Assembly (NCBI GenBank): GCA_017615975.1
Contig: JAFZYZ010000027.1
Span: 1 to 51,445 of the forward strand
Length of the DNA stretch: 51,445 nt
Direction: 5' to 3'
Source of the DNA: Clostridia bacterium
GTDB taxonomy: Bacteria; Bacillota; Clostridia; Christensenellales; Borkfalkiaceae
A program made the position numbers and the translations under genes. The notes under the pieces are model-generated. The model saw only the letters and a program-made list of their open reading frames with translations, made no database searches and was not told where the DNA came from. Below, in pieces: positions 20,958-46,826 of this stretch; within the stretch, counting starts at the first letter, position 1; each line of letters starts with the position of its first letter.

Positions 20958-20958
20958 G

Positions 20959-24684: not shown

Positions 24685-24717
24685 AAAAGGCGGTTGAGAC
24701 AATTTCAACCGCTTTTC
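24685..24717. terminator. bidirectional terminator at the left edge of the AT-rich island
   Basis: Stem gcggttga / tcaaccgc with loop gacaatt, an A-run before and ttttc after. It lies between convergent genes. Confidence 0.7.
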
Positions 24718-25194
24718 TTATTCAGCAAAGTTTATATAAGGTTTCTTTTTTCGAATTGCGTAGTCTAGGGTTTTTCTAGCACCACCCCAAGAATATTTTA
24801 CATAAGCAATTAGCAGGTCGCAATTTTCAACCATCCACTCATTGCGCTTTAATATTGCAAATTTCTTTGGCACGTTTTCAAGTGGGGGATATAGAGTGCT
24901 ATCATATATTTCATTTGCAATTTGTAATTTACTATAAGATGAATCCAGGTATGGAGAAATAAAAACGAGTTCTATATTTGGGAAATCTTTTTTAAGCTTT
25001 CTTAATATGGAAAAAGCAAGACTATCAAAATCACCATATCCACCAAGGTAAAATTTTGCATTAGGATATTGCCTAATTTTTTCAATAAGAGACTCTTTAA
25101 TTTTGTCGGCGACGCTTTGGTCGATATTTATATTTCCATGTCCGCAGAATGTTATAATCAAATTATTACCACACATATATGTGTATAATAACAC
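24718..25194 (-). CDS. DUF1273 / SLOG-family protein
   Basis: 158 aa. The pattern FCGHG..LGGYGDFD..KRNEWMVENCDLLIAYV..GGARKTLDYA is typical of this family. The start is uncertain (GTG 25194 or ATG 25176), and neither has a clear SD. Confidence 0.5.
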   Translation of the reverse strand: MLLYTYMCGNNLIITFCGHGNINIDQSVADKIKESLIEKIRQYPNAKFYLGGYGDFDSLAFSILRKLKKDFPNIELVFISPYLDSSYSKLQIANEIYDSTLYPPLENVPKKFAILKRNEWMVENCDLLIAYVKYSWGGARKTLDYAIRKKKPYINFAE

Positions 25195-25284
25195 AAAAGA
25201 GAGGTAAAACGCAAACTATAAACACATAGGTGTGTCTATTATTTTTTAAATGCGCATTATAATACAACAAACACATATGGGTGT
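25171..25284. promoter_or_regulatory. three ACAC-N6-GTGT palindromes (putative operators) in the divergent SLOG / XRE control region
   Basis: acacatatatgtgt (25171-25184, a perfect palindrome), acacataggtgtgt (25222-25235) and acacatatgggtgt (25271-25284). They are spaced 51 and 49 bp apart. A TATAAT lies at 25258-25263 between sites 2 and 3. Confidence 0.45.
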
Positions 25285-25298
25285 TTAGGGGTGTTATA

Positions 25299-25532
25299 AT
25301 GAAGTTATATCAAGCAATTGCTAAAAGAACAGAAAATCTTTCATCTGAAAAGGGGTTGTCCCAGTATAAAGTTGCGCAGCTAGCGGGAACATATCAGCAA
25401 AATATAAATAGGTTAATAAACGGGGAGATCCACAATGTTAGTTCAGTTCTCGTGTGGAATATTTGCTGCGCTTTTGGAATTACATTAAAAGAATTTTATG
25501 ACGACCCATTATTTGATGAAATAGACGATTAG
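25299..25532 (+). CDS. XRE-family HTH transcriptional regulator (77 aa)
   Basis: ATG 25299 has an AGGGGTG SD. HTH LSQYKVAQLAGTYQQNINRLINGE. Confidence 0.75.
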   Translation: MKLYQAIAKRTENLSSEKGLSQYKVAQLAGTYQQNINRLINGEIHNVSSVLVWNICCAFGITLKEFYDDPLFDEIDD

Positions 25533-25583
25533 TGATAATTTTGAGACAAGAGATAGAAATTAAGCGTATTTTTATAAAAAAGC

Positions 25584-25620
25584 TGGTAGTTTTGAAATAT
25601 AAGCTACCTTTTTTATTTTT
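25584..25620 (+). terminator. probable terminator after the XRE gene
   Basis: Imperfect stem ggtagttt / aagctacc, followed by ttttttattttt. Confidence 0.45.
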
Positions 25621-25733
25621 ACGGAAAGCACCTTTATTTCCTTAAAGTTGTTCTTTACAAAATCATACAATATACTTGTATTTTAAGATAAAACATGATA
25701 AACTTAATATAATAACCTGAAAGAGGTGTAAAT

Positions 25734-25940
25734 ATGGCTATAAGTTATAACAAATTATGGAAACTTTTAATTGATAAAGGCATGACGAGAACTCAGTTGC
25801 AAAAGGCGGCGGAGATGTCTTCTACTACCTTGGCGAAGCTTGGCAAAAACGAAACCGTCTCTATGGACGTGATGCTAAGGATATGTAAAGTGTTGGACTG
25901 TGGCTTTGAAGATATAATTGATGTCACTAAGGAGAACTAG
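25734..25940 (+). CDS. small XRE/Cro-type HTH regulator (68 aa)
   Basis: MTRTQLQKAAEMSSTTLAKLGKNETVSMDVMLRICKVLDC is the typical short HTH_26-like layout. GAGGTG SD. Confidence 0.75.
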   Translation: MAISYNKLWKLLIDKGMTRTQLQKAAEMSSTTLAKLGKNETVSMDVMLRICKVLDCGFEDIIDVTKEN

Positions 25941-25941
25941 C

Positions 25942-26334
25942 ATGCAAGAAGTATATGATTTTTTGAAAAAGTGTGGGACTTATTATTTGGCGACGGTTGA
26001 CGGCGACAAACCGAAAGTCAGACCGTTCGGCACGGTAGATATCTTTGAAGATAGACTTTATATCCAGACGGGTAAAGTCAAGCCGACTAGCAAGCAGATT
26101 CATGCTAACCCGAACGTAGAGATTTGTGCGTTTGATGGAAATAAATGGTTAAGGCTTTCGGGCAAACTTGTTTCAGATGATAGACGAGAAGCAAAAAAGC
26201 ATATGCTTGACAATTATCCGATGCTTCGCAATATGTATAACGAAGACGACGGCAATACGGAAGTTTTTTATTTCAAAAACGCCACGGCAACTTTCTCGTC
26301 TTTCACCGAACCGCCGAAAAAAATTAAATTTTAA
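25942..26334 (+). CDS. pyridoxamine-5'-phosphate-oxidase-like FMN-binding split-barrel protein
   Basis: ATG 25942 has an AAGGAGA SD. YLATVDGDKPKVRPFG..LYIQTGKVK..NPNVEICAF pattern. Confidence 0.55.
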   Translation: MQEVYDFLKKCGTYYLATVDGDKPKVRPFGTVDIFEDRLYIQTGKVKPTSKQIHANPNVEICAFDGNKWLRLSGKLVSDDRREAKKHMLDNYPMLRNMYNEDDGNTEVFYFKNATATFSSFTEPPKKIKF

Positions 26335-26415
26335 GAAAAATGTTTTTAATATGAACGGAATTGTCATATTTGTTATGCTAAACTTGGTTTAGCATAAAGC
26401 AGAAGGGTGTATTAA

Positions 26416-29286: not shown

Positions 29287-29287
29287 A

Positions 29288-30112
29288 ATGGATAATTCTG
29301 ATTACAGGGTAAAATTAAAACTTGATTTTGCAGAAGAGGAAAAAGTAAAAGATTTTCTTGCAAAGGCTTATTGTGCTTTTTCTGAATCTATACAAATTGA
29401 TAATGAGATATCAAGTGAAACATTTAATAATTTTTGTTTCAGTGCAGGAGTTAAGGCAGACTTAGTTTACTATAATGAATATGTGAATTCACCATTGATT
29501 TTTAAATTTTTACAAAAGCATACAGATTCACTTGTGGATTTTATATACTACTTTTCAATACTTGTTAATTCATGTAAGTATAAAAGTGCTGAACAAAATA
29601 GTTGGATAAAGGCATTTAATTATTGGGCAAGTTTGGCTTGTTTACAGTTTGACTTTATTGAAGATGAAAAAAAGTTTTTTATATTTCCTAAAGGTGCGAA
29701 GGAGTTAGATGATAAATTGATTTCCGAGCCGTTGGAGTGGTTAAAAGATTATAAATTATCACATAAAGCATTTATTAAAGCACTAAAAGATTACTCTGAA
29801 GTAGATGAAAACACGGCAAGTCAGGTTGCCGACAATTTAAGAAAAGCGTTAGAAACTTTCTTTCAAGAATTTTTTGAGACAAGTCAGTCTTTGGAAAACT
29901 GTAAGAGCCTTTATGGTAAATTTATGAAAGATAAAGGGATTTCGACCGATATTTCTAATAACTTTGAAACTCTTTTGCAATTATATACGAACTACAATAA
30001 CAATAACGCAAAGCATCATGACAAGGCAGAAATAAAGGCGTTAGAATATATTTTATATCAAACAGGCGCAATTATAAGACTATTGATTACTTTAAAACAG
30101 GAGAACAAATAA
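29288..30112 (+). CDS. 274-aa predicted all-helical protein of unknown function, translationally coupled between the helicase-nuclease and the methyltransferase
   Basis: ATG 29288 lies 1 nt after the upstream stop and has a GGAGAG SD. Its stop lies 1 nt before the next ATG. I recognise no catalytic motif. Confidence 0.7.
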   Translation: MDNSDYRVKLKLDFAEEEKVKDFLAKAYCAFSESIQIDNEISSETFNNFCFSAGVKADLVYYNEYVNSPLIFKFLQKHTDSLVDFIYYFSILVNSCKYKSAEQNSWIKAFNYWASLACLQFDFIEDEKKFFIFPKGAKELDDKLISEPLEWLKDYKLSHKAFIKALKDYSEVDENTASQVADNLRKALETFFQEFFETSQSLENCKSLYGKFMKDKGISTDISNNFETLLQLYTNYNNNNAKHHDKAEIKALEYILYQTGAIIRLLITLKQENK

Positions 30113-30113
30113 A

Positions 30114-31964: not shown

Positions 31965-32036
31965 TTTCAGTTGTTCTAATTAGAAAAGGATGTAATAAAA
32001 AGATAATTACTACGAAATATTTGGAGATATTAACGA

Positions 32037-35000
32037 ATGTATCAAGCGATAAAGCGGTATTGCGAGAATGATAAACAAAATGGTCTTTTCCTTTTGGATA
32101 TGCCAACGGGATTTGGAAAGACTTATAATGTTATTAAGTACATTTATGATGCTTCTATAAATGAGGCTAATAAGGATAAAAAATATTTTTTTATTACTAC
32201 TTTAAAAAAGAACCTTCCGACAGTTGAATTAGAACAGTGGTTTAAAGAAAACGGTAAAGCTGATCAATTTAAAGAAAAGTTTTTGTTTATTGACTCCAAT
32301 GTAGATTGTGCGATCGAACATTTAACGGAAAAAGTTAAAGATTTAATTCCTAATGACATTAAAAAAACAGATGAATACAAAGAATTTGAAAAAGGTATTA
32401 GATTTCTCCAATCACAAGATACAGACACGAAACTGAAGGCTTTTGTTAGTAGTATTCAGGACACATTAAGAACAAAGACAGAACCCGCTTTTAGAAGACT
32501 GCTACAGACTATGTTAGCAAAAGAGTATCCATCAGTAGATAAAAGGTTGTACGCAATTAAAACCGAAAAACGATGGCAATGGCTTGGCGAATTATACCCT
32601 GCAGTTTTTACGAAGGATCGTCAAATAATTTTTATGAGCGTGGAAAAATTTTTGTCTCGTAATTCAACTATTGTTGAAACTTCTTATGTGTTTTATAATT
32701 CGAGTATTATTGAAAATGCAGTTATTTTTATAGATGAATTTGACGCAACAAAGGAGACGATTCTTAATAATATTATACAAAATGGTTTGCGTGACAGAAT
32801 AGATTATGTTGATTTATTCCTTTCTATATACGGTCCATTGCAAACCGCTTCTTTTCCAGCAGCATTAACAATACCATCGAAGAAAAGAAAAGCAAGCGAT
32901 TATGCAAATCAATCGCTTCAAGCTGTAATTGATGGGATAAAAGAGAAAGCGGAAATAATTTATGATACATACTCTCTTCAATTTAATCACCGCACAAATG
33001 TAGATGAAAATAATTCACGTAATTTTTTGTTTCAAGATCATCAGTTTCATTCTGTGCTAAACGGCAACAATAAATATGTCACAACAACGAGTATCAAAAC
33101 TGATCGTATAAATGCCATAAAGTTTACTGAAGAAAGACCAGAACTGGAATCAAACAATATTCAAATATTGCTGGGTAAACTAAGAGGTTTTATTTCGTGG
33201 TTTCTTGGCGGGGTAAATATTCTTGCAATTAACTATATGCAACGAAAGTTGGAGGAAAAGAGAGATGGAGATGAAGATTTTACCTTTGAATATGCAATTC
33301 GCTCGGTCTTATCACTTTTCCGTTTAAATCAGATATATATAGACTTTTTAACATCACAAATTCTTATTTCAAGCCATAAGGCAAAAGGTGATATTCAAAG
33401 TTCAGAATTTGATAAAACATTTTATGAGAACGGGTTCAGGTATTATGCTTTTGAAGATGATGCTGGACACGATATGCAATCTCGTATGATGATGTGTTCT
33501 TTTCAAAATACACCAGAAAAGATTTTATTAAGATTTTGTGAGAAAGCGAAAGTAATCGGTATTTCTGCAACAGCAACTATAGATACCGTTGTTGGCAATT
33601 TTGATCTCGATTATCTCAAAGCAAAAATGCAATCTTCTTACGTTGAAATGTCAGATGAAGATTATAATCGTTTGAGTCGCAATTTTGAGGAGACTCAGTG
33701 CGGATATAATCAAGTCAATATTCATACGGAACTTCTTGGTGATACTGACTACAATTCATATGGGATCAAGTCGTGGCAGCGTGTTTTTGATGACAGAGAA
33801 ATTGCTGAAGAAGCATATAATATTGTCCAACGAAAACGTAGTGATAACGAAAATAATTATAATTCAGAGCGTTATCTTAGAATAACAGAAGCATATAAGC
33901 AGTTCTTGTGCCATGCGGATATTAAATCGTTTCTTTGTGTTCTAACTAAACATCCACAATTTAAAGATAGTACTCTTGATTTGAATACAATTTATGATCT
34001 TTTTGAATTAACAGCAAAAGTGTTTCAACCTGGCTTTGATGCACGCAAATCGGTAGTGAAACTTGATGGGGATGAATTTGATCAAAAGAAGAATGATGTA
34101 ACACGAAGGTTAGAAAGAGGTGAAAAACTCTTTGTAATTTCAGTATACCAGACGATTGGTGCCGGGCAAAATCTCCAATATAAAGCACCTGCGACAATAA
34201 TAAAATCGCTTATAAAGGTCAATGACCGTGATAGTGGCGAAAAGGATTACGATGCTATTTATCTTGACAAACCAACAAATCTTTTAGTGAATTTTATTCA
34301 AGGACAGTCAGTCGAAGAAGATCAGTTTGCAAAAGCGTTATTTCAATACGAATTTTTACAAGAAAATGCGGAAATATCGATTGATGAAAGTGTTAAATCT
34401 ATTAAAAACGCATTTCGTGCATTCATGAGTAATGGGTCAGCAAAAGGAGAATATGTTTCCAATCAGCGTGATTGTAAAAGCATTAGAATGTTGGCAACTC
34501 GGTATATTATTCAGGCAATAGGAAGGATTTGTAGGACAAATTTAAAGCAAAAGGATATATATGTTTTTGCAGACAGTCGAATAGCAGAAAGTTTAGATGT
34601 CAGTGTTGTTGAAAAAAGAATTGTTAATCGTGAGTTTTCCGCGTTATTGGGTCGAATTTCACAGGTTCATTACAAATCACCAGAGGAGCGTTCGCTTGAA
34701 GCAAAAGCGGCTTTAACTTCAATTCGGGTAAACAAAGATATACGCAACATGATAGAAGAAGATTGGAACGATAAGAGTATAGAGAAATGGCAAGTACTTC
34801 GTGATCTCGTTTTAAGATATCCAACGCTATCGCACGAAGAAGTGTCTCGTAATTTTGTGGCATATAATTATTATGTAGAGATGCCTAAAAAGGCAAATCG
34901 TATTTATTACAATCAAGAAGAAGATTTTAATAAGATATCGGTTGGTTTTGTAAAGGCTTCGGAATATAAGTATACTTTATCGGCGGAAGGGGCTAAGCTT

Positions 35001-35519
35001 ATTCAATTAATGTCGTTTCCTGATATTAAACAGTATTTTAAATCTGCTGGATATGCTACCGAATTTGCCGAAAATGACTTTATTATGTCCCCACCACTTT
35101 GGAATAACATATACAAGGGAGCTTTGGGGGAAGTTGTGGGAAGGTATTTGTTTAACAAGATTCTGTCTGTCAAATTGGATGACATTACCGATCCTGAAAT
35201 ATTTGAGCTTTTTGACTTTAAGGTGAGATCATCTTCTGTATTTTTAGACTTTAAGGACTGGCAAGAATCAACTGATTCTAACTGGGACAAGCAGATAAGA
35301 AAGATTACAGAAAAAGCAAACAAATGCGGCTGTAAATGTGCCATTATTGCTAACATATTGACGGCGAATAGCAGATACAGTGTTAGGGAAAGCACTGAAA
35401 ACGGTGTCCATATATTAATTGTGCCTGCACTGCTTTTAGAGTCTACTCATGATGTTTACACGGATGCATGGAAAAAAATTAAGGAGTGCATTGAGAAATA
35501 TGGCGATTCAGACCAATAA
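32037..35519 (+). CDS. Rad3/DinG-like SF2 helicase with a C-terminal PD-(D/E)xK-like nuclease segment, 1160 aa (DdmD-like architecture)
   Basis: Motif I PTGFGKT (32103-32123). Motif II FIDEFDAT (32727-32750). GISATAT and YQTIGAGQNL. Motif VI QAIGRICR (34512-34535). C-terminal ELFDF..VFLDFKDW (D1060, D1071-x-K1073; nt ~35202-35255). The helicase call is solid; the nuclease and DdmD-like calls are inference. Confidence 0.6.
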   Translation: MYQAIKRYCENDKQNGLFLLDMPTGFGKTYNVIKYIYDASINEANKDKKYFFITTLKKNLPTVELEQWFKENGKADQFKEKFLFIDSNVDCAIEHLTEKVKDLIPNDIKKTDEYKEFEKGIRFLQSQDTDTKLKAFVSSIQDTLRTKTEPAFRRLLQTMLAKEYPSVDKRLYAIKTEKRWQWLGELYPAVFTKDRQIIFMSVEKFLSRNSTIVETSYVFYNSSIIENAVIFIDEFDATKETILNNIIQNGLRDRIDYVDLFLSIYGPLQTASFPAALTIPSKKRKASDYANQSLQAVIDGIKEKAEIIYDTYSLQFNHRTNVDENNSRNFLFQDHQFHSVLNGNNKYVTTTSIKTDRINAIKFTEERPELESNNIQILLGKLRGFISWFLGGVNILAINYMQRKLEEKRDGDEDFTFEYAIRSVLSLFRLNQIYIDFLTSQILISSHKAKGDIQSSEFDKTFYENGFRYYAFEDDAGHDMQSRMMMCSFQNTPEKILLRFCEKAKVIGISATATIDTVVGNFDLDYLKAKMQSSYVEMSDEDYNRLSRNFEETQCGYNQVNIHTELLGDTDYNSYGIKSWQRVFDDREIAEEAYNIVQRKRSDNENNYNSERYLRITEAYKQFLCHADIKSFLCVLTKHPQFKDSTLDLNTIYDLFELTAKVFQPGFDARKSVVKLDGDEFDQKKNDVTRRLERGEKLFVISVYQTIGAGQNLQYKAPATIIKSLIKVNDRDSGEKDYDAIYLDKPTNLLVNFIQGQSVEEDQFAKALFQYEFLQENAEISIDESVKSIKNAFRAFMSNGSAKGEYVSNQRDCKSIRMLATRYIIQAIGRICRTNLKQKDIYVFADSRIAESLDVSVVEKRIVNREFSALLGRISQVHYKSPEERSLEAKAALTSIRVNKDIRNMIEEDWNDKSIEKWQVLRDLVLRYPTLSHEEVSRNFVAYNYYVEMPKKANRIYYNQEEDFNKISVGFVKASEYKYTLSAEGAKLIQLMSFPDIKQYFKSAGYATEFAENDFIMSPPLWNNIYKGALGEVVGRYLFNKILSVKLDDITDPEIFELFDFKVRSSSVFLDFKDWQESTDSNWDKQIRKITEKANKCGCKCAIIANILTANSRYSVRESTENGVHILIVPALLLESTHDVYTDAWKKIKECIEKYGDSDQ

Positions 35520-37317
35520 AATCGAAGCTGAAATAAATTACGTAGCACTTGATAATAAATATGATTTTTTTGTTTTAACAACTACAGAGAAATACATTAA
35601 AGGCGGAGCAATGATATTAGATGCGCCGTCATCAATACTTCGTGTACAAGCAATACATTTTACCAACGGAAAATGTTTTTTCGTTATGGTGTTTAAATCT
35701 GCAGATAATAAAAACAAATTAAAGGAATTAATACAATCATATAGCGAAGGTAGATATTTAACTATCAATCAATTAAACAGTAGCGATCTTGAAGAAAAAG
35801 ATTTGCTCCAGTTACTTATCAATGGATTGTCTAATTCACGCAATCCATTACTTGGGTTTAGCAATTTAACAGGACATTTATATTGTTTCCATCCATCATG
35901 GCTTAAACATAAAAGGACAGGGTCTCAAGAAGAAATAGTTAAAGTGCCCTGCATTGAATTTCATGTAGTAGACGAAAATAAATTATTGATAGATGTAAGG
36001 ACTTTCAGTTCAGTAAAACTTAGGAATAAGATCACCTTTCGCAAAAAGAAATTTGAAGAATATCCTAAGTATAGTTTCGCAACAAATAATACATTAAAGC
36101 GAATAACTGAATCGTGCGACGATGCGAGTTATATTTTAAGGCAAACAGATGGTGCAAAGACAGAAATACCGTTTTTGGACATTCTAAATACCGAAAAATT
36201 TATGCAAAGCAAAATGGGTGTTTTATCTGCCGTAATTGAGCAATTCAATAAGGTATATGTGGGGGAGGCGTCTATTAAATTTAGTAGCATAGACGAGTAT
36301 AAACGAATAGACCATAAGAAAAAAGCAGAGGAAGAAAATAAATCGAGAGTTGTTTCCATTTTAAAACAGAACAAAATACGAATTGTTGATCAAATAGGGA
36401 ATGGGTATTCAGAAGAGTTCTGTAAAACAATGTCGAGATTATTGGAAAGAAAATATGGAATTAAACCCTCTTTAGGGACCCGCTTATCAAAAAATGGACT
36501 TAATATAGTTTTAATACACAATGCAGCCTATTATATTGATGTGGAAGATCCGCATGATGTTGTTAAGTCAAATTATGCTATTCAACATGTTACATTAGAA
36601 GATTTTTCTAATAGTGCTGAATTTGCGATTGCTACTGTTGTTAATGAGTTAATTATTAAAGATGATTTGAGATCTGGAAAAATATCATTATTTGATTGGA
36701 AACGACTTTCATTTCAAGGTGATTTTATATTCGGGACTGAGGTTGTTGAAAACGAAATAAAAAAATATTTGTTTATGCGTATTCATCCAGATGGCTCTTT
36801 TGTAATACATAAATGTGAATTTGATTTATTTTCTGCAAATGAATATATGAAATATGCAAAAATATATGAAGATGCTAAAGTTGCTTCTGAAACGGTTCGA
36901 GGCATAATAAGCGATGATAAAGGAAATATAAATATTATTAAAGATACGGATTGGTTTACAATTCCAAATATTAACTGTATTAAATCTGAGTTAGAGAAAG
37001 GTAATACAAAGATTCGGGGCAAAGAGGCAAGAATGCGTTTTCTCGATGCAATATTAGATATAAAATGGTTTCAAAACGGGGAAGATGTTTTCTATTTTGC
37101 AAATGACATTGGGGACGGAATGCGCACATTAGTGCAACGTGCTGCGAATATAAGAAAAATAGTTGCACATGAGAACTCGGAATTGTTTTTTGATAAAATC
37201 TCCCCATTGTTTGATGTGACTTTTGTCCGCAATGGTCAGTTAACAGTTGTTCCGTTCCCGTTCAAGTATTTACGAGAAGATTTTGATTATATGAAAAAAG
37301 TTAATGAAGATGACTAA
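35500..37317 (+). CDS. 605-aa protein with a MID-PIWI-like C-terminal half, predicted catalytically inactive (pAgo-like / DdmE- or PIWI-RE-like candidate)
   Basis: ATG 35500 overlaps the upstream gene by 20 nt, with AAGGAG 13 nt upstream. NIVLIHNAAYYIDVEDPHDVVKSNYAIQHVTLEDF fits the MID-type K..Q pattern. FIFGTEVV sits at the GxDV position, IISDDKG at the RDG position, and VVPFPFKYLRE matches PxPxxYA[HD]. The CDS is well supported; the fold assignment is by eye only. Confidence 0.45.
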   Translation: MAIQTNKIEAEINYVALDNKYDFFVLTTTEKYIKGGAMILDAPSSILRVQAIHFTNGKCFFVMVFKSADNKNKLKELIQSYSEGRYLTINQLNSSDLEEKDLLQLLINGLSNSRNPLLGFSNLTGHLYCFHPSWLKHKRTGSQEEIVKVPCIEFHVVDENKLLIDVRTFSSVKLRNKITFRKKKFEEYPKYSFATNNTLKRITESCDDASYILRQTDGAKTEIPFLDILNTEKFMQSKMGVLSAVIEQFNKVYVGEASIKFSSIDEYKRIDHKKKAEEENKSRVVSILKQNKIRIVDQIGNGYSEEFCKTMSRLLERKYGIKPSLGTRLSKNGLNIVLIHNAAYYIDVEDPHDVVKSNYAIQHVTLEDFSNSAEFAIATVVNELIIKDDLRSGKISLFDWKRLSFQGDFIFGTEVVENEIKKYLFMRIHPDGSFVIHKCEFDLFSANEYMKYAKIYEDAKVASETVRGIISDDKGNINIIKDTDWFTIPNINCIKSELEKGNTKIRGKEARMRFLDAILDIKWFQNGEDVFYFANDIGDGMRTLVQRAANIRKIVAHENSELFFDKISPLFDVTFVRNGQLTVVPFPFKYLREDFDYMKKVNEDD

Positions 37318-37436
37318 TGATTTTGTAATCACTAATGGTAAATGAACTTTCCATACTAAACAAGTATTTAGGCGAGAGTAGTTTAAGGGATACTACTAGA
37401 ATTATGTTTTTATAGAGAAATGTTTGGAAATACACT

Positions 37437-38954
37437 ATGGATATTTTAGAAAAAATAAGTGAATTATATGGGAAAATTTATAAATACAATTCTTTACTTT
37501 TAAAAAAATCAGAAGATTTATTGTTAGAAAATAAGTACGATTTTGATGATATATTTGATTTTTATATAACTTCACATGCTTTAGGATATTTGAAAAATCT
37601 TTATTTCGGGAATATACAAAGTGCAGGGTTTTATCTTAATATCAGATGTATTATAGAAGGACTTGCTATAAAACAGTTAAACGCTCAAGGTAAGATAAGC
37701 ATTGAGATGAAACAACTACTGCAAAAGCAAGTTTTTTTAATAGAATATAAGAACTATTTTCAATTCAGTGATATATCTGATAAAATTTTATTACCAGAAA
37801 AATTACAATATGATTATGATAAAGCTGTCGAATATTATAAGGAAATACTACACAATCGATTTGATAATAAGACGATATTAGAAATATGCAAATCGAAAAT
37901 CCCATTTTTATGCAATCCAAAGATTAGTTTTCATAAAATAATTGAAAACACTTTAGGCGAAAAAGCAACTTCCATATATGGGATATATAGTTCAATGATA
38001 CATTCGTCGAATAATATTCCTTATACAATGGAAGAGCTTAATAATTTTGCTATCGCCATATTCCCATATATCGTTGAAAACTTTGATGTATTACCGAGTG
38101 GCACTTCGCTAAAGGATGAACTATATTTGTTAGCGTCTCAAATAGGGAATTCATTAACCCAGTGTTTTACGGATATAGGCGATATACTAATAAATGTTGC
38201 AAATGTTTTTGAAAAAAAATTTAATAATAATTATGTCACAAATACTTTTAGAAAATTATCATATGTTCTGTCAGATTTTGCAATAGAAAAAAACATTGGT
38301 TTAACAGAACAAATAAAAAGTAAGTGGAAAATCCTTTTAGAACATTTTGCCGTCTTTAATTTTCAATATTTTAATGCTAAACATGACGAAAATATATATA
38401 AATTAATGGACAAGCATAGAATACTTCAAGAAAAAAGGAATCTATCAATAAAATTTGTTTTAGATGACGAATATGAACTTTACTGTAAAATTTATTCAAC
38501 TAATCACTGTGAAAAGGCCACATTTGATAAAGCATTTTTACAGCCTCTAGGTTATCTAATTAACGAGAAAGGGATTGTGCCTAAAATCGTAGATTTAATA
38601 AAAGATTTTTCAAAACTTTTTGGGGCTGATAAGTTAGGGGAAATAACTGCCGGAAAATCTATGATTTTAGATTACGTTGAAAGTCAAATGATATCTCATG
38701 CTAACGGATATATGTGGTTTGCAAATAATGGCGCTTGGGGAGATGTAAACAGCGTTCTAATCAATACTTTGTTAAGCATAAAGTTGATTCTAGAAAAAAT
38801 GCAAGCTGTTTTTAAGGTTCATAGAGAAATAGAAGGGACAAAAGAATATAAAACAATAATAAATCTCTTAAGGAATAGTCTAAAAAAGCTGGATGTTAAT
38901 TTGAAAAATTTGCTTGAAATATTAAGTTTGCCAATGATTAAAAAGCCTTATTAG
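37437..38954 (+). CDS. 505-aa predicted all-helical protein of unknown function
   Basis: Long ORF in the same orientation as its neighbours, very AT-rich. Two internally similar halves each carry an R/K-x-hydrophobic..E segment and a later S-x-I/M-x-H motif (IYSSMIHSSNN; ESQMISHANGYMW). I can assign no family. Confidence 0.6.
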   Translation: MDILEKISELYGKIYKYNSLLLKKSEDLLLENKYDFDDIFDFYITSHALGYLKNLYFGNIQSAGFYLNIRCIIEGLAIKQLNAQGKISIEMKQLLQKQVFLIEYKNYFQFSDISDKILLPEKLQYDYDKAVEYYKEILHNRFDNKTILEICKSKIPFLCNPKISFHKIIENTLGEKATSIYGIYSSMIHSSNNIPYTMEELNNFAIAIFPYIVENFDVLPSGTSLKDELYLLASQIGNSLTQCFTDIGDILINVANVFEKKFNNNYVTNTFRKLSYVLSDFAIEKNIGLTEQIKSKWKILLEHFAVFNFQYFNAKHDENIYKLMDKHRILQEKRNLSIKFVLDDEYELYCKIYSTNHCEKATFDKAFLQPLGYLINEKGIVPKIVDLIKDFSKLFGADKLGEITAGKSMILDYVESQMISHANGYMWFANNGAWGDVNSVLINTLLSIKLILEKMQAVFKVHREIEGTKEYKTIINLLRNSLKKLDVNLKNLLEILSLPMIKKPY

Positions 38955-38992
38955 ATTTTTGATAATGTTTATAATAAATAAAGGATATCCAA

Positions 38993-41900
38993 ATGAAAAT
39001 AATTAAAAGTACGCAATTGAAGAAATGGTTTTATTATAATAGCAGAAAAACTCAGTCTATTTTTCCAGAATTAATACGAAAATTAATTCGTATGTCAATC
39101 AATAGAACTTCAAATATTCATTTACCATCAGGGGATTCTATATATACTACAGGATGGGATGCTATTGTCAAACATAATGAAGTAAAGCATGAGTTTGTGC
39201 CACTAGGATCATCCTTTTGGGAATTGGGGACAAATAACAATAGTGTAGCAAAAATAGAGGCTGATTATAAGAAAAGAAAAGCTCAATCTACTATTTACGA
39301 CAAATCTCAATATACATATGTTGCAGTAACATCAAGAATTTTAGACTCTGGGAAAAAGGAGGAAATATGCGAACAAATAAAGAAAGATAAAAATTTTAAA
39401 GATGCAATAATTATTGATGCAAATGATCTAGAATGTTGGCTGGAAGGCCATATTGATATTACAATTTGGCTGTTAAACAAATACGAAGAAAGTATTAAAG
39501 ATTATGAAATTAATACTGTCGAAAATATTTGGCAAGAGATATCGCAATCAACAAATCCAAAACTAACTGAAACAATTTTTACGACAGGAAATCAAGCGCA
39601 GGCTACTCGGTTTATTGATGACATTACAAATAATCTTGTAACAGGGAACAATTATTATGCGGTTTGTTCTCCTTTTTATGGGCAAGAGCATGCTTTATTT
39701 TTTGCTGTGGCAAGTATTATAAGTTCAAATAATGAAGCACTTATTGAAAGGAGTATTGTCGTAGAAAGTCAAGCTGGATTAGATATAATAAATGCATTTT
39801 GCGAAGATAAAATAATAATATTAAATTTTAATTGTTTCGATAAAAGATTAAGCAAAAACACAACAAACAAGTATATTTTTCTAGAAAATATAACGGCGGG
39901 AATTCAATTAGAATTAGTTTCACAGCAAGATTTTACAAAAGCTATAGAAACATTGGGATATTCAGCAGGCGAGGCATATAGGATTTCATATACAGTAGAA
40001 AATAATGCGGTTGCATTAAGAAGGTTGTTGGCACAAGTGCCAACATTAAAAAAACCACGGTGGGCAAGAGAGAAGAATAAAAATGACTTAATACCGTTAA
40101 TGATTTTGGGTGAAATAAATATGAATAAATTATCCGATATTGAGATGTTAAAAGCAATAGTTGGCGATAATTATGATCAGTATTTAGAAACCTTAAATTT
40201 TTGGACGGAAATCGGGTATGCACCTTTATATAAATATGAAGATGTTTATAGAATTTGTAGCAAAAAAGAATGTTTTGAAAATATTCAAGTTGATCACTTT
40301 TCAGTAAAAATCAAAAAAATAGAAGACAAGATAAAAGAATTGTTTTGCAATAAAGACATAGATAATAATCTATTTAATGAGAGAACTATAAGAAATATAA
40401 TAGAAGCGTTCATTATCATGGCGCAACAATCAGAAAGGAATCAACTTCATTTTGATTTTTACGTTGAAGAAATATTTAAAAATGTTAGTGGCAACGAAGT
40501 GCTTTATGAAAGAATAAAAACATTTTTGTCTCTTTTAGCAGAATTATCACCTCAAAAATTTATTAAATATATTGAAGGTGAAATTGCAAACGATAATCCT
40601 GTTTTTAATGCTTTGGTAAATAAAGAAAGTAGTGTTAATAGCTGCGATTTTGTAAACTATATATCTTATGGATTAGATAGATCTTTAAGGTTAAAGGAAA
40701 CCGTTGTAAAATCATTAAAAGTGTTGTTGCAACTATATTATCATGTCAATGAAAATCTGCTTCTATTAGAAAGAATTCAGGAAAGTTTTTCTCCAATTAC
40801 GGTTGGACTATTTCCCATTTCTTTACATAGAAAAACCGAACTTTTATTTAATTATATTAAAGATCAAGATTCGAATAAAACAAAAAAGATAATGGAAGGC
40901 TTATCATCTGGCGGTAAGCTGAATATGATGATTGCAAGCGCACGGTCTTATCGGCAATTTGATGAACAAGAAAAAATTCATTATACCTATCAAGACTATT
41001 TTGACCTGCAAAGCCAGGCGATAAAATGGTTAATTAATAATTCATCTCAGTCAGATTTAGCAAGTTTATTAGAGAAAGCTTTAAATAATATATATTATCG
41101 TCCAAAAAATTTGTTGTGTGAAGATTTAGAACAAATAAAACAAAAATGTTTAACTGACAACGTAAGCGATGAAGTAAAGGCTGAATTAAATGTTAAAGTT
41201 TTGTCAAAAATTGAGGATTTAAAAAAGTTTGATAGAAAGTATAAAAACGATTATTTGCCAATATTGCAAGAGTTTTTAGATGCTATTGCCCCAACAGATA
41301 CCTATATTAGTTATAGATATATGTTCACGCAAGATAATTTCCCATTAGCTAATCCCATAAAATTTGAAAGTAATGCAAATTGGTATGAACGGGACAATGA
41401 AAGTAGAGAAATATTACGCAAAAATGCCATTGAAGTTTTATTGAAAGAATATGGTGAAAATATTTTAGAAAGAATTATTAATGATGCCACAAAAAAATCA
41501 TATAGTATTTGGAAACTTCTCTTTTGTTATTCTAAAGACAAGGAAAAAGATATTATACAAATGATAAAACTTAAAGAACAGGTTGGGCTTTCTTTTTATT
41601 TATCTAGAATAGAAAATGCTGTTTTAGTTAAATATATAGACATCGCCGAAAATGAAGAGGATGCATTCATTTTTTCTTGTTTGCCATTTAATATCCAAAC
41701 TATTAATTTTGTAAGTGGTAAAACTAATGAAAAATTATATTGGGAAGGAAGGAGATTATATTTTAATGATGAATTATCTTTTGAGCAAGTATTCGATAAA
41801 ATGTTGAAGTTTTATCCAACAGGATTATTGGATTATTTTGCTTATAGGAGAGATTATTCATACGAGGAAGGAATTTTATTATTAAACGCATTGGCAACAT

Positions 41901-42655
41901 ATTTACAAGAAGAGAATAACGAAATAAGAAGACTGGATTTCTATTCACTAAAAGAAATAATAAAGAAAATGGACAATAAGTATTATACTAAAGAATTGTC
42001 CAAATGTGAATTTGACTTATTAGAGTATATATTAACGGATTTGGAAGATTATCCTTTAGGAATTAAAAAATATTTTTGGGATAATCCAAAGGAATTAGGA
42101 GGATTGCTGTCTGAATTGTATAATAAAAGAGATAAATTACAACAAGGAAGTTTAGGTGCTAAAATTTTTTTTGAAGCACACATATCACTAGGGGAAAAAT
42201 CATTTATTCCTAAAGAGTATATGTTGCAATATAAGGAAAAGCTTTATAGTTGGGCAATGGAGATAATTAATGTAAACTCTATAGATAATAAAAATTTAAA
42301 AATATTTTTGAAATTAGCTGTAATAAATACTTTAGCCAAATGCCCTAAAGAAATTAATGCTAAAATTTGGCCGATAAAAGAAGTAGCGGATATTTTAGAG
42401 GAATTGTCAAAAGAAGATTTTGATTCACCCGAAAGAGTCTCAAGCAATTTCTACTGTTCTTTTTTTAATACGAGAGGTATGAGAACAATAGGAAATGGAG
42501 AAGAGGAGTTTGTGTTAAATGAAGAGTATTTAGCATATAAAGACTACTATGATGTTTCCCATCCTGTGGTTGCCACAGCACTGGGATATATAGCAAATGG
42601 ATATAAGGAAGAAGGGGAAATGGACAAACGGTGGTATTTATTTGGGGAATATTAA
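38993..42655 (+). CDS. 1220-aa protein of unknown function; the N-terminal ~150 aa may be a restriction-endonuclease-like domain, the remainder looks helical-repeat-like
   Basis: AAAGGA SD 7 nt upstream. N-terminal FPELIRKLI..TTGWDAIV..GSSFWELGTNNNSVAKIEADYKKRK..YVAVTSR..IIDANDLECWLE (nt ~39125-39277), with D56/E77/K86 as candidate D..E..K residues. No P-loop is seen anywhere. Confidence 0.6.
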   Translation: MKIIKSTQLKKWFYYNSRKTQSIFPELIRKLIRMSINRTSNIHLPSGDSIYTTGWDAIVKHNEVKHEFVPLGSSFWELGTNNNSVAKIEADYKKRKAQSTIYDKSQYTYVAVTSRILDSGKKEEICEQIKKDKNFKDAIIIDANDLECWLEGHIDITIWLLNKYEESIKDYEINTVENIWQEISQSTNPKLTETIFTTGNQAQATRFIDDITNNLVTGNNYYAVCSPFYGQEHALFFAVASIISSNNEALIERSIVVESQAGLDIINAFCEDKIIILNFNCFDKRLSKNTTNKYIFLENITAGIQLELVSQQDFTKAIETLGYSAGEAYRISYTVENNAVALRRLLAQVPTLKKPRWAREKNKNDLIPLMILGEINMNKLSDIEMLKAIVGDNYDQYLETLNFWTEIGYAPLYKYEDVYRICSKKECFENIQVDHFSVKIKKIEDKIKELFCNKDIDNNLFNERTIRNIIEAFIIMAQQSERNQLHFDFYVEEIFKNVSGNEVLYERIKTFLSLLAELSPQKFIKYIEGEIANDNPVFNALVNKESSVNSCDFVNYISYGLDRSLRLKETVVKSLKVLLQLYYHVNENLLLLERIQESFSPITVGLFPISLHRKTELLFNYIKDQDSNKTKKIMEGLSSGGKLNMMIASARSYRQFDEQEKIHYTYQDYFDLQSQAIKWLINNSSQSDLASLLEKALNNIYYRPKNLLCEDLEQIKQKCLTDNVSDEVKAELNVKVLSKIEDLKKFDRKYKNDYLPILQEFLDAIAPTDTYISYRYMFTQDNFPLANPIKFESNANWYERDNESREILRKNAIEVLLKEYGENILERIINDATKKSYSIWKLLFCYSKDKEKDIIQMIKLKEQVGLSFYLSRIENAVLVKYIDIAENEEDAFIFSCLPFNIQTINFVSGKTNEKLYWEGRRLYFNDELSFEQVFDKMLKFYPTGLLDYFAYRRDYSYEEGILLLNALATYLQEENNEIRRLDFYSLKEIIKKMDNKYYTKELSKCEFDLLEYILTDLEDYPLGIKKYFWDNPKELGGLLSELYNKRDKLQQGSLGAKIFFEAHISLGEKSFIPKEYMLQYKEKLYSWAMEIINVNSIDNKNLKIFLKLAVINTLAKCPKEINAKIWPIKEVADILEELSKEDFDSPERVSSNFYCSFFNTRGMRTIGNGEEEFVLNEEYLAYKDYYDVSHPVVATALGYIANGYKEEGEMDKRWYLFGEY

Positions 42656-42684
42656 TGTAATAAAACATTAATTGGAAAATCATT

Positions 42685-42714
42685 AAAGTCGGTAGATAAC
42701 TATCGACTTTTTTA
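42685..42714 (+). terminator. rho-independent terminator ending the seven-gene block
   Basis: Stem aaagtcggtag / ctatcgacttt (one G-T pair) with loop ataa, followed by a T-run. Confidence 0.75.
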
Positions 42715-43076
42715 ATTTATTCCAGGCTAGATATAAGCGATTATCATACAGTAAACTGTAAAACTAATTTGATACAATAAAGAAAACAAATAAATATTAT
42801 AAACATTTTATTAAAAGCACTTGATTTTTTTGAAAAATTGTTTTAGAATATAATTGCATTTGGAAGAATGCGAGATTAGGTCGGCAGCGAAATGCTGGTT
42901 GTAAAATGACGGGATCTACTTTGCAGGGATGCAAGTTCCGCAGAGAAGATCAACTCAATTTATAATTAATATTTGACTGATTTGACCTTAGCGTACGAGC
43001 CCGTAGTGGGCTTATTATGTAGAGGTCTATTTTTATTTCTTCCTGTGCAAAAAATATTTTACAGGAGGATTTTTTT

Positions 43077-44132
43077 ATGGCAATCGATATTGAAAATATC
43101 GAACACACAATAGGTTATACTTTTGAAAATAAGGATCTATTGAAACAGGCGTTCGTCAGAAGGAGTTATTCAGAAGAATATGGCGGGCAGAACAATGAGG
43201 TATTGGAGTTTATCGGAGATAAAGCACTGGACCTTGCAGTTGTCAGATTGATGATGTTGCGGTTTGGTGAAATTACCGAAGATAAGGAATTGAGCGAGTT
43301 TAAGTTAACTAGTCCTAAGTATTTTAAGACAAAGCTCGGCGAGGGAAAATTTACCGACATAAAGAAACTGCTCGTTCAGAAAAAAACGTTATCAAAATGC
43401 ATTGATAGATTAGGATTTCATAAGCAATTGATAATGGGAAAAGGTGATATAGAACAAGGCGTAGAAAACCAAGATTCAGTAAAAGAAGACTTGTTTGAGG
43501 CAATAATAGGAGCGATTGCTCTGGATTGCGATTTTAATATGAGACAAATTAGTTATGTGGTTGACGCCATGCTTGATGTCTTGGCTTTTTTTAAAAATGA
43601 GGATTTTAATGCTAATTATGATGGCAACTATGTGTCGTGGCTACAAGAGTGGACACAATCGCAAGGGTATGGTTTACCAAATTATACGTATACCTTAAAT
43701 ACTGATGATAATTCATTTACTTGTCGTTTAACAATAACGGGGAAAGATGGTTTTAGACATTTTGAATTGGGTGATGGGTTTAGTCATGCAAAAGCAAGAG
43801 CTGTAGTTGCATATAAAACATTTATATACTTACGCGAACAAGGTATAATAAAAAATAGATTTGAAGATGCAGTTGGTAAACCGTATTTTGAAGAATCTAT
43901 CCGACAATTGAATGAATTATATCAAAAGAGATTAATAGCGAAGCCTGAATATTCTTTTAATGAAGAACATGATGAAAACGGTGATTCAATTTGGTTTTGT
44001 ACTTTAACAGTCGAAGGGTTTGAAAAGAAAGTAGAAGAAGGCTCTAATTCAAAAAAAGACGCTCAAAGGTTTGCTGCATATAATTTTCTTTGCTACATCA
44101 TGGGAATAGAGGAAGAATTAAAGGGAAATTAA
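43077..44132 (+). CDS. RNase III-family nuclease with two C-terminal dsRBD-like domains, 351 aa (accessory paralogue)
   Basis: Signature EVLEFIGD (43197-43220) and second catalytic motif EDLFEAIIGAIALD (from 43485), so all four acidic catalytic positions are present. Two alpha-beta3-alpha-like segments follow, ending in HAKARAVVAYKTFIYL and KKDAQRFAAYNFLCYI. AGGAGG SD. Confidence 0.75.
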   Translation: MAIDIENIEHTIGYTFENKDLLKQAFVRRSYSEEYGGQNNEVLEFIGDKALDLAVVRLMMLRFGEITEDKELSEFKLTSPKYFKTKLGEGKFTDIKKLLVQKKTLSKCIDRLGFHKQLIMGKGDIEQGVENQDSVKEDLFEAIIGAIALDCDFNMRQISYVVDAMLDVLAFFKNEDFNANYDGNYVSWLQEWTQSQGYGLPNYTYTLNTDDNSFTCRLTITGKDGFRHFELGDGFSHAKARAVVAYKTFIYLREQGIIKNRFEDAVGKPYFEESIRQLNELYQKRLIAKPEYSFNEEHDENGDSIWFCTLTVEGFEKKVEEGSNSKKDAQRFAAYNFLCYIMGIEEELKGN

Positions 44133-44187
44133 TAAATTATAATAAAAACAATGCTATCATAATGGAAAGTATTGACCTAGTCATAAA

Positions 44188-44217
44188 ATAGCGGTAGAGA
44201 ACCTATCGCTATTTTTT
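44188..44217 (+). terminator. rho-independent terminator after the RNase III-like gene
   Basis: Stem atagcggtag / ctatcgctat (one G-T pair) with loop agaac, followed by ttttt. Confidence 0.75.
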
Positions 44218-44341
44218 ATAGTTTATGGTAAAATATAAAGGTCAAAAGGAGGTGGGGCTATGATTGCGTAGGCGTCCACTATCGGCAAAGATAAGTGGAC
44301 GGGAAAATCAAAACAATTTAATAAAAACAGGAGGTATTTAT

Positions 44342-45835: not shown

Positions 45836-46556
45836 AATAAAAGATTTGGCGAACAGGTTAAGTCTGACTAACCTTGCGAGAAGCCTTACGGAAATACAAG
45901 GCACGGAAAAAGAGTGGCGGTTTTTGGAAAAGGTGCTACGGACCGAACAGGAAATACGCGACGGCAACAAAGAACAGACGCTAATAAAAAGAGCCAAGTT
46001 CCCAGTTATAAAAACGATGGAAGAGTTTGAACTGGACGCACAGGAAAAACTGACCAAGTGGCACTTAACTAAACTATCGGAAACGAAATGGATAGAAGAC
46101 AGATACAACGTTCTTCTAATCGGTAGTGCGGGAACGGGTAAAACCCATCTAGCCGTTGCAATCGGGTTAAAGGCGATAGGCAATAACAAAAAGGTAGTGT
46201 ATACGACGGTAAACGAGTTGCTGTTTCTAATAAAGACACAGCAGGAAGTTAAGAAAAGCAAAATCAAGTTGGACTACATAGAAGACTGCGACGTGGTAAT
46301 AATAGACGAACTCGGTTATACGCCGTTAAGCCGAGAAGAGACGCTTACCCTTTACAAAAAGATAGACGGACTTAATAAAAGGAAATCCCTTATAATAGCC
46401 ACGAACAGAACTTTCGAAGGCTGGGGAGACATCTTTTACGATGAACAAACAGCCGAGACCTTACTTGACAGAGTCGTAGAGAACTGTCAGGTAATAACAC
46501 TTACAGGCGGTAGTTACCGACTGAGAACCCACAAAGGTATATTTGACGTTAACTAA
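45822..46556 (+). CDS. istB: IS21-family ATP-binding helper IstB
   Basis: 244 aa. Walker A GSAGTGKTHL and Walker B VVIIDELGY. Overlaps istA by 14 nt, with a GGAGG SD. Confidence 0.9.
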   Translation: MDLSRIKDLANRLSLTNLARSLTEIQGTEKEWRFLEKVLRTEQEIRDGNKEQTLIKRAKFPVIKTMEEFELDAQEKLTKWHLTKLSETKWIEDRYNVLLIGSAGTGKTHLAVAIGLKAIGNNKKVVYTTVNELLFLIKTQQEVKKSKIKLDYIEDCDVVIIDELGYTPLSREETLTLYKKIDGLNKRKSLIIATNRTFEGWGDIFYDEQTAETLLDRVVENCQVITLTGGSYRLRTHKGIFDVN

Positions 46557-46806: not shown

Positions 46807-46826
46807 AGATCGTTAATTATTTGTTT

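Follow-up and report, generated by a model that had tools for sequence, protein, structure and literature searches.

The plasmid-defence system DdmDE has been reported in the literature from Vibrionaceae and Lactobacillaceae and has been studied in two organisms only, and its mechanism has been described for these solved systems (10.1101/2024.05.10.593530; 10.1101/2024.10.09.617351). Its Argonaute component, DdmE, belongs to the long-C prokaryotic Argonautes (pAgos), in which a PIWI insertion domain (INS) is reported to be conserved; INS is a descriptive and not a defining feature of these proteins, and in the solved structures it contacts the guide-proximal duplex. Here we describe a DdmDE pair encoded in an AT-rich island of a rumen bacterium of the class Clostridia (Borkfalkiaceae). 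The window, i.e., the whole stretch of DNA analyzed, comprises the 51,445 nucleotides of contig JAFZYZ010000027.1 (assembly GCA_017615975.1, forward strand). The segment from 24.7 to 44.2 kb of this window is a horizontally acquired defence island. Very probably it is a mosaic of at least five independent modules arranged in one orientation, including DdmDE and a type III-like restriction-modification (R-M) operon, with an RNase III gene as a separate cassette. This reading draws on the base composition, on the lack of the island in relatives, on homology and on conserved motifs, and the biochemical activities given below are those predicted from them.

Composition, Boundaries and Host Context of the Island

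The GC content across positions 24718-44221 was 0.319, compared with 0.447 in the left flank, 0.424 in the adjacent IS21 element and 0.452 in the right flank. The best composition change-points, computed by script from a sliding profile, were located at 24,630 and 44,240. This agrees well with a preliminary description of the same DNA, made from the sequence alone, in which the step had been placed at 24,718 and 44,230. The GC values of 20% and 57% quoted there turned out to be local extremes on single lines and not segment means, although the step itself is real. Each of the 19 1-kb windows inside the island had a lower GC content than every one of the 28 windows outside it (Mann-Whitney U = 0, p = 8.6e-9), and the tetranucleotide correlation to a reference at 1-19 kb dropped from 0.96-0.98 outside to 0.53-0.70 inside. 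Among the island genes, GC was lowest in the 505-aa gene, at 0.272, and next lowest in the 1220-aa gene, at 0.289. At 19500-22000, right after the tRNA-Met gene (20109-20186) and over the first genes of the glycan locus, GC dipped more mildly, to 0.37-0.40.

The features of the island and its edges are listed in Table 1. The open reading frame (ORF) map proposed earlier and its intergenic gaps of 1, 1, 72, -20, 119, and 38 nt were correct with gene starts at 29288 and 35500, and the hairpin noted at the left edge was confirmed in a terminator scan as a good bidirectional terminator. The only strong terminators on the forward strand after 25.6 kb were those on both sides of the RNase III cassette. 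As no strong forward terminator was present between about 26.4 and 42.7 kb, the six large genes could be transcribed through as one string. The gene inventory was also recovered as described, with two SF2 helicases (956 and 1160 aa), an N6/N4 DNA methyltransferase, an Argonaute-like 605-aa protein and an RNase III paralogue. PD-(D/E)xK segments were located at the C-termini of the 956-aa and 1160-aa proteins, and the N-terminus of the 1220-aa protein is nuclease-like. Three proteins (274, 505, and 1220 aa) had been described as motif-free, which did not hold for the 274-aa protein, a homologue of the PADLOC candidate PDC-S32. Besides istA and istB of the IS21 element, profile scans revealed no recombinase in the window. 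Att-like direct repeats, a boundary tRNA and an integrase were sought in the window and none was found; the sole tRNA gene (Met) lies at 20.1 kb, and the Rfam scan of the whole window returned tRNA only.

Table 1. Features of the island and its edges. Positions refer to the 51,445-nt window. HTH, helix-turn-helix; AF2, AlphaFold2; pLDDT, predicted local distance difference test; pTM, predicted template modeling score; RBS, ribosome-binding site; dsrm, Pfam double-stranded RNA-binding motif.
Feature	Position	Strand	Evidence and remarks
Bidirectional intrinsic terminator	24690-24712	both	Between Fe-ADH gene (+) and 158-aa gene (-); left compositional boundary; terminator scan
158-aa protein, weakly SLOG/YpsA-like	24718-25194	-	Pfam YpsA 1.8e-3 (below cut-off); phrog_289 2.6e-7
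Small XRE-type HTH protein (77-83 aa)	25299-25532	+	Pfam HTH_26/HTH_3 ~1e-6; start from L057 gene call
68-aa Cro/C1-type HTH protein	25734-25940	+	Pfam HTH_26 5.5e-19
130-aa pyridoxamine-5'-phosphate-oxidase-family (PNPOx) protein	25942-26334	+	Pfam PNPOx_N 2.5e-10
Putative type III-like restriction subunit, 956 aa	26416-29286	+	Pfam ResIII (PF04851) 9.5e-7; motifs
274-aa homologue of PADLOC defence candidate PDC-S32	29288-30112	+	Between res and mod, 1-nt gaps
Predicted beta-class N6/N4 DNA methyltransferase, 616 aa	30114-31964	+	C-terminal extension of ~270 aa
DdmD (by homology), SF2 helicase fused to C-terminal PD-(D/E)xK nuclease, 1160 aa	32037-35519	+	PADLOC DdmD 1.3e-43
DdmE (by homology), long-C-type prokaryotic Argonaute, 605 aa	35500-37317	+	Overlaps ddmD by 20 nt; PADLOC DdmE 6.1e-9
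505-aa all-alpha protein (model)	37437-38954	+	AF2 pLDDT 92.8, pTM 0.93
1220-aa protein, rare family	38993-42655	+	Nuclease-like N-terminus, Avs4/STAND-like alpha/beta module, long C-terminal region
Intrinsic terminator	42685-42710	+	Ends long co-directional gene string; first strong forward terminator after 25.6 kb; terminator scan
Conserved leader of RNase III cassette	42821-43076	+	Promoter-like TTGATT-17-TAGAAT, hairpin 42900-42964, terminator-like hairpin with U run, RBS
RNase III paralogue, 351 aa	43077-44132	+	Pfam Ribonuclease_3 and dsrm
Terminator	44185-44215	+	After RNase III gene; terminator scan
IS21-family element	44222-46810	+	istA 44342-45835, istB 45822-46556; host-like GC; ends approximate

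Rumen "Clostridia/Oscillospiraceae" metagenome-assembled genomes contain genes with 85-90% identity to the Fe-ADH gene of the left edge. The closest relatives (L001, L026, and L040) retain the upstream glycan genes and the Fe-ADH gene, and island genes were found in none of the three. Downstream of Fe-ADH, L001 and L040 have a host-like GC content and carry unrelated genes, and the contig of L026 stops inside Fe-ADH. In a further relative (L003), the Fe-ADH gene is followed by an HTH gene and an 85%-identical PNPOx gene, and no large island comes thereafter. Given this arrangement, the 1.7 kb at the left end of the island may predate the remainder, and the PNPOx gene may be an older resident of the locus and not imported defence cargo. 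The identical island was present in two further metagenome assemblies (ENA ERZ27256937 and Logan SRR12529210). The exact empty site was not recovered: the 347-aa protein of the right flank has no exact record, and the Fe-ADH relatives diverge downstream. We attribute this to the flanking glycan locus being itself variable. Indeed, the glycan genes beside Fe-ADH are reshuffled among the relatives, which makes the entire 20-47 kb a variable region, and owing to this variable flank the absence of the island is established solely in species-level relatives. Being compositionally foreign, co-directional, missing after Fe-ADH in the closest relatives and composed nearly entirely of nucleic-acid-targeting genes, the region nevertheless has the properties of the defence island that had been proposed.

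The 1160-aa and 605-aa Genes Encode a DdmDE Pair

In the preliminary description the island was thought to match no single named system. For the 1160-aa and 605-aa genes this did not hold, as by their sequences they clearly are DdmD and DdmE. The 1160-aa protein matched the solved DdmD of Lactobacillus casei (LcDdmD, Protein Data Bank (PDB) chain 9ix4_A) with an E-value of 2.7e-64, residues 5-1113 aligning on 10-1139, and the DdmD of Vibrio cholerae (VcDdmD) with an E-value of 4e-41. The Walker A lysine is kept as K28 in the motif GFGKT25-29 (corresponding to K55 in VcDdmD and K33 in LcDdmD), and a DEFD motif is present at 233-236. The nuclease residues E1032, E1057, D1060, D1071, and K1073 align one-to-one with E1059, E1082, D1085, D1100, and K1102 in VcDdmD, respectively. 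In VcDdmD, K55A and alanine substitutions at the five nuclease positions abolish activity and plasmid elimination (10.1101/2024.05.10.593530).

The 605-aa protein used as a single sequence against the PDB matched the solved DdmE proteins LcDdmE (4.2e-15) and VcDdmE (1.7e-8). A profile built from 42 relatives matched LcDdmE with an E-value of 1.7e-56 over positions 3-591 and VcDdmE with 2e-40, and with the same profile no other Argonaute was matched, including the catalytically active ones. Comparison of the pocket for the guide 5'-phosphate and Mg2+ revealed that Q376, E401, K405, K674, and E678 in VcDdmE correspond to Q362, E383, K387, K589, and E593 in the window protein, of which K387, K589, and E593 are invariant in the 42 relatives. 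The sixth pocket position, Y363 in VcDdmE, is occupied by His352. Moreover, a segment of 70-100 residues that is present in both solved DdmE proteins has no counterpart here between profile positions 500 and 501, and the site of the missing segment is the position of INS. An exhaustive search in metagenomes placed the DdmE family at 772 clusters at 50% identity; many of the relatives are about 600 aa long and others 660-700 aa. The window DdmE thus appears to be a member of a shorter sub-clade without INS. Since DdmDE is reported in the literature from Vibrionaceae and Lactobacillaceae, the copy of the rumen Clostridia would be a new member of the system, belonging to this shorter sub-clade.

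By homology with the solved systems, DdmE would be an Argonaute without catalytic activity whose guides are short DNAs. The guided DdmE would recognize complementary plasmid DNA and pass the displaced strand to DdmD, whereupon the auto-inhibited DdmD dimer would dissociate and the monomer would move 5'-3' as a helicase-nuclease that degrades the invader.

The ddmD gene is directly followed by ddmE in three other loci, namely L067, the Nostoc plasmid pn2 and L143. In L143 (IMG/VR 3300029587_000489, positions 3382-13841) the element that bears the pair also encodes a relaxase, ParB and a large serine recombinase, and two GmrSD genes come after the pair. In this locus the DdmD ORF begins at the equivalent of residue 217, without the Walker A region, and abuts the recombinase gene; it may be truncated.

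The Island Is Best Explained as a Mosaic of Independent Modules

At least five modules were distinguished in the island: the small genes of the left edge, the res-X-mod operon, DdmDE, and the 505-aa and 1220-aa genes as one module each. DdmD-DdmE-505-1220 recurs in the same order in one further island, L067, whose remaining content differs, with protein identities of 94%, 74%, 89%, and 70%, respectively. This four-gene block covers 10.7 kb with 84% DNA identity over positions 32015-42713 of the window. Upstream of the block, L067 carries a type I S subunit gene and an AAA_15 ATPase gene instead of the R-M module, and downstream the block is directly followed by the IS21 left end, matching window positions 44222-44735. 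The shared IS21 junction indicates that L067 and the window are probably recent descendants of one island and not independent assemblies. Elsewhere the genes occur apart. The Nostoc plasmid pn2 has DdmD-DdmE without the 505-aa and 1220-aa genes, and the same is true for L143, where the pair stands between the serine recombinase and the two GmrSD genes. Neither DdmDE nor the 505-aa gene was found in any of four loci of the 1220-aa family. For the 505-aa family, 50 metagenome loci and three further loci were examined, and not one had DdmD, DdmE or the 1220-aa gene within 10 kb.

The strongest competing explanation is that DdmD-DdmE-505-1220 form one four-gene system, in which the 505-aa and 1220-aa proteins would serve the INS-less DdmE clade as accessory or second-line effectors. 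All four genes point the same way, their gaps measure -20, 119, and 38 nt, no strong terminator precedes position 42685, and their order is kept as a block in L067 despite different upstream and downstream genes. However, DdmDE has other neighbors in Nostoc pn2 and L143, the 505-aa and 1220-aa families lack these partners in the loci counted above, and the only second case of the block shares its IS21 end with the window. A single system of DdmDE with the 505-aa and 1220-aa genes was therefore rejected as the preferred explanation, because they do not co-occur outside L067, and we consider it unlikely.

Less likely still is that the block represents ordinary low-GC core or accessory DNA, e.g., a remnant of an integrative element or prophage whose genes would serve its own replication or transfer and not the defence of the host. 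The IS21 element at the edge would fit such an origin, as would the matches of the 1220-aa protein to a PHROG family and to one "Bacteriophage sp." contig, the occurrence of RNase III relatives in IMG/VR contigs and in a Mob_Pre element, and the DdmDE of L143, whose element encodes a relaxase and a serine recombinase. In the window, however, profile and repeat scans revealed no integrase, relaxase, replication, structural or att-like features, the recognizable genes belong to R-M and DdmDE, which are experimentally established defence systems, and carriage on mobile elements fits a mosaic defence island as well. The implicit reading of the preliminary description, a single novel multi-gene defence system of the whole 19.5 kb, is barely credible: although the genes are co-directional, tightly spaced and closed by one terminator, the parts recur elsewhere without each other (Res-Mod is borne by Enterococcus plasmids, DdmDE occurs in Nostoc and L143, many islands contain the 505-aa gene, the 1220-aa gene is found by itself, and the RNase III belongs to a Mob_Pre element), and L067 exchanges the R-M module for other genes and is devoid of the RNase III gene.

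Several observations weigh against the preferred reading of a horizontally acquired mosaic of known and new defence modules. The conservation of the four-gene block in L067 would be compatible with functional linkage. The empty site was missed, and the absence of the island is limited to the species-level relatives named above. DdmE deviates from the solved proteins at His352 and in the missing segment, the putative Res subunit fails every curated type III Res model, and the structural similarity of the 1220-aa protein to Avs4 is accompanied by low TM-scores and absent NTPase motifs (see below). Finally, a DUF5677 ORF, the domain to which the 505-aa family is weakly related, was tried in E. 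faecalis and is not among the ORFs reported to be active on phage (PMC12632615).

A Type III-Like R-M Operon With an Embedded PDC-S32 Homologue

The 956-aa, 274-aa, and 616-aa genes were assigned by their sequences to a putative type III-like R-M operon of the order res-X-mod, in which X is the PDC-S32 homologue. The 956-aa protein contains the SF2 motifs GAGKT146-150, DEVH307-310, SGT339-341, and QTSCR520, and a C-terminal PD-(D/E)xK motif could be read from its sequence (PD873-874 ... E892-T-K894). Comparison with the curated type III Res models gave no PADLOC REase match and only a 26-bit P-loop match in NCBIfam, and no PDB chain was found at E ≤ 1. As neither a curated Res model nor a PDB entry was matched, the module is named type III-like. 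The 616-aa protein matched Pfam N6_N4_Mtase (PF01555, 5.2e-40) and PADLOC MTase_III (2.6e-48) and contains the motifs DPPF87-90 and FSGSG312-316. The predicted methyltransferase would mark the host DNA, and the helicase-nuclease would cut unmarked DNA.

The 274-aa protein matched the PADLOC profile PDC-S32 with an E-value of 9.1e-24, residues 106-285 aligning on positions 61-236 of 237. No match was found in Pfam, NCBIfam or the PDB, BLAST searches with the protein against plasmids and phages returned nothing useful, and the name PDC-S32 is absent from the searchable literature.

Homologues of Res and Mod (25% and 36% identity, respectively) are adjacent on the Enterococcus faecium plasmid pDY28-poxtA (L126), on which the Res homologue is named by NCBI "TnsA endonuclease N-terminal domain-containing protein". 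On this plasmid (positions 1271-8511) they are part of a three-gene operon with an extra 965-aa "ATP-dependent DNA helicase". The third component of this R-M-like family may be variable, being a helicase on pDY28-poxtA and PDC-S32 in the window.

The 505-aa Protein Is a Defence-Island Resident Without Constant Partner

The family of the 505-aa protein comprises 116 clusters, none of them with a functional name. DUF5677 was weakly matched by 13 of 58 family members, with a best E-value of 8e-5. Searching with the predicted model by Foldseek revealed nothing at E < 0.1 in the PDB or in BFVD (best E-values 0.13 and 0.18, TM < 0.2). The family profile gave only noise against the PDB, hhalign detected no internal duplication in the protein, and BLAST against plasmids and phages with it gave nothing useful.

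In the 34 loci for which neighbors were recorded, members of the family stand beside ResIII, NERD, AbiH, UvrD_C, DUF2971, RhuM, AAA_21/RloB, HamA, and SLFN helicase genes, and in L066 the family gene comes directly after a Hachiman HamA-helicase pair. The 505-aa protein is a resident of defence islands without a constant partner, and it probably acts alone. Our guess, made with low confidence, is that it may be a stand-alone sensor-effector working through the invariant residues R70, E74, H189, E415, and H421.

The 1220-aa Protein May Resemble Avs4 but Lacks Walker Motifs

The 1220-aa protein belongs to a family of 33 clusters, all of 1200-1290 aa and without Pfam domains. The protein itself had no match in PADLOC (including the Avs profiles), Pfam or NCBIfam, and the family profile gave noise only against the PDB; phrog_18693 was matched with an E-value of 6.4e-30. 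The residues D56, P70, E77, K87, D91, and R95 are invariant in the family and located within an alpha-beta-beta-beta-alpha-beta unit, which in the model looks like a PD-(D/E)xK variant. The AF2 model of residues 1-500 had a pLDDT of 89. Searching for structural homologs of this model by Foldseek revealed Avs4 (8dgf) as the top match, with an E-value of 1.4e-5 and a probability of 1.0, but with a TM-score of only 0.25-0.27. The next matches were SAMD9, CED-4, Apaf-1, and clamp-loader AAA+ proteins, and the TM-scores across the matches ranged from 0.25 to 0.34. Neither a Walker A motif nor a conserved acidic Walker B was found in the family alignment, and the P-loop position is occupied by S-x-x-E-A. 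Lacking the Walker motifs and any match to the Avs profiles, the 1220-aa protein is not a member of Avs. Its C-terminal region is assumed to be helical.

Most likely, the protein would function as a single-chain sensor-effector that combines an N-terminal PD-(D/E)xK-like nuclease with a P-loop-less, nucleotide-independent STAND-like switch; nucleotide hydrolysis would be dispensed with, since a P-loop is absent from the entire family. Only tentatively can it be proposed that the 1220-aa protein represents an undescribed class of single-gene immune sensors, similar to Avs4 but without nucleotide hydrolysis, and that the 505-aa gene is a second new stand-alone defence gene; we rate this as possible, though doubtful. 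In a weaker variant of this proposal, the 505-aa and 1220-aa proteins may work together with the DdmDE clade that lacks INS, the four genes forming one cassette.

Homologues of the 1220-aa protein occur alone; the one in Hydrogenovibrio interrupts a set of housekeeping genes. An HTH_3 gene precedes the homologue in L059 and L062. Homologues of 1345-1370 aa with a fused N-terminal XRE HTH were observed on proteobacterial plasmids, namely on plasmid pS19502 of Shewanella baltica (L118, WP_012197948.1) and on a plasmid of Acetobacter vaccinii (L119, WP_149280479.1). Their NCBI names, "HigA family addiction module antitoxin" and "HTH transcriptional regulator", cover only the first ~100 residues.

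The RNase III Gene Forms a Separate Cassette With a Conserved Leader

Judging from its sequence signals, the RNase III gene is an independent cassette with its own promoter, leader and terminator. The catalytic signature of the 351-aa protein is intact (E41-x-x-E44-F-x-G-D48 and E141), and the protein has a C-terminal double-stranded RNA-binding domain (dsRBD) as well as a second, middle domain that is dsRBD-like in look. The TIGR02191 rnc equivalog model gave 126.1 bits, which is below its cut-off of 166.25. The protein belongs to a large family of ~345-aa proteins, some of which have Dicer_dimer matches. In three loci (L120-L122) the RNase III gene closes a Mob_Pre/HpaII-R-M element, which occupies a different host site in each of them, and in L124 a relative is located beside Thg1-like, GmrSD, HipA, and Lamassu genes. 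With an alignment as the query, 15 IMG/VR contigs with relatives of the RNase III were found, and a single-sequence query returned no close relatives in viral contigs.

The segment 42714-44221 is absent from L067, whose DNA homology to the window ends at 42713. Two terminators bracket the cassette, and their stems are similar (CGGTAGA...CTATCG). In L067 the first terminator leads directly into the IS21 end, so that recombination between the two terminators may have brought in or removed the cassette.

In E. coli, the leader of rnc contains a long hairpin that is cleaved by RNase III, and the gene is thereby autoregulated. A leader of ~270 nt upstream of the RNase III gene was common to all 12 loci aligned; besides the window, it precedes the RNase III genes of L120, L124, and L128-L139. 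The leader hairpin consists of 21 pairs, with interruptions, of which 15 show compensatory changes. Cells of the alignment were paired in 87.7% compared with 33-43% in slid controls, the covariation score was 0.51 compared with at most 0.16 in the controls, and the minimum free energy z-score was -5.9. No Rfam family was matched by the leader. That a double-stranded RNA hairpin precedes a gene for RNase III suggests autoregulation by self-cleavage, and by analogy with E. coli the leader hairpin may be an autoregulatory RNase III substrate.

Small Genes of the Left Edge and the IS21 Element

The small genes at the left edge have a loose association with the 505-aa family. Homologues of the 68-aa HTH protein (49-65% identity) were observed beside 505-aa-family genes in six loci (L063, L071, L081, L084, L086, and L095), and in L068 a homologue of the 158-aa protein with 70% identity adjoins such a gene. 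The islands in which the small HTH_26 or SLOG-like homologues adjoin the 505-aa family come from gut and rumen. The PDB search with the 158-aa SLOG-like protein gave noise only.

At the right edge, istA matched the Pfam domains rve (8.5e-9) and Mu-transposase C (9.7e-9), and istB matched IstB_IS21 (1.8e-53). The left end of the element is marked by the beginning of its homology with L067 at 44222. At the ends only an imperfect inverted repeat of 19 nt was found (44305-44323 with 46635-46653), and BLAST searches with the element against plasmids and phages gave nothing useful and no second copy to fix the ends. The right end (46621-46810) contains repeated motifs of 20-41 nt, with a 41-nt unit in tandem at 46725-46806. 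In the stretch from istB to the 347-aa gene, the core of this unit recurs in inverted orientation at 46642-46661. These right-end repeats may be multiple IstA-binding repeats.

Comparison With Known Systems

What this island adds is limited but specific: a DdmE sub-clade without INS, found in Clostridia, a PDC-S32 homologue embedded in an R-M operon, and three uncharacterized mobile modules that are well supported by structure or covariation. Current concepts are not overturned, and the main value of the analysis lies in correct annotation and in the selection of candidates. Three leads result from it, namely the P-loop-less Avs4-like giant protein, the 505-aa protein with a confident fold without relatives, and the mobile RNase III family with a covarying hairpin leader. 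For DdmDE, the locus adds a complete, by its motifs apparently active pair in rumen Clostridia to the two organisms studied so far, and the INS-less DdmE sub-clade offers a natural test of the purpose of the insertion domain.

The putative R-M operon resembles type III R-M systems (e.g., Mod and Res of EcoP15I) in its beta-class N6/N4 methyltransferase and its large Res, and the 956-aa protein resembles type III Res subunits in its DEAH-type SF2 helicase motifs and its C-terminal PD...ExK nuclease. It differs from them in the order res-X-mod and in the extra 274-aa gene inside. The latter, in turn, is embedded in an R-M operon, whereas PDC-S32 is a stand-alone candidate in PADLOC. In contrast to members of the 505-aa family that match DUF5677, the window's own 505-aa protein stays below match level.

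According to the model, the 1220-aa protein would share with Avs4 (8dgf) the order of an N-terminal nuclease and a STAND-like module in one large chain, the long C-terminal region and the occurrence as a lone gene. Unlike Avs and other STAND NTPases it has no Walker motifs, and its nuclease signature is D...E-x-G...K and not the canonical (D/E)xK. The RNase III resembles E. coli rnc in its catalytic motifs and dsRBD and, by analogy, in the long hairpin of the mRNA leader. In contrast to housekeeping rnc, it is a 351-aa protein with an extra middle domain, scores below the cut-off and is located on mobile elements or in defence islands.

For the 1160-aa and 605-aa pair, the closest known system is DdmDE of V. 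cholerae (VSP-II) and L. casei (PDB entries 9ix4, 9iw3, and 9ixm). Here, too, the system consists of two translationally coupled genes, and DdmD has equal length and the same domain order, an SF2 helicase followed by a PD-(D/E)xK nuclease. The pair differs from the solved systems in its rumen Clostridia host, in a DdmE of ~605 aa that is devoid of INS, and in the replacement of the tyrosine Y363 of VcDdmE by histidine.

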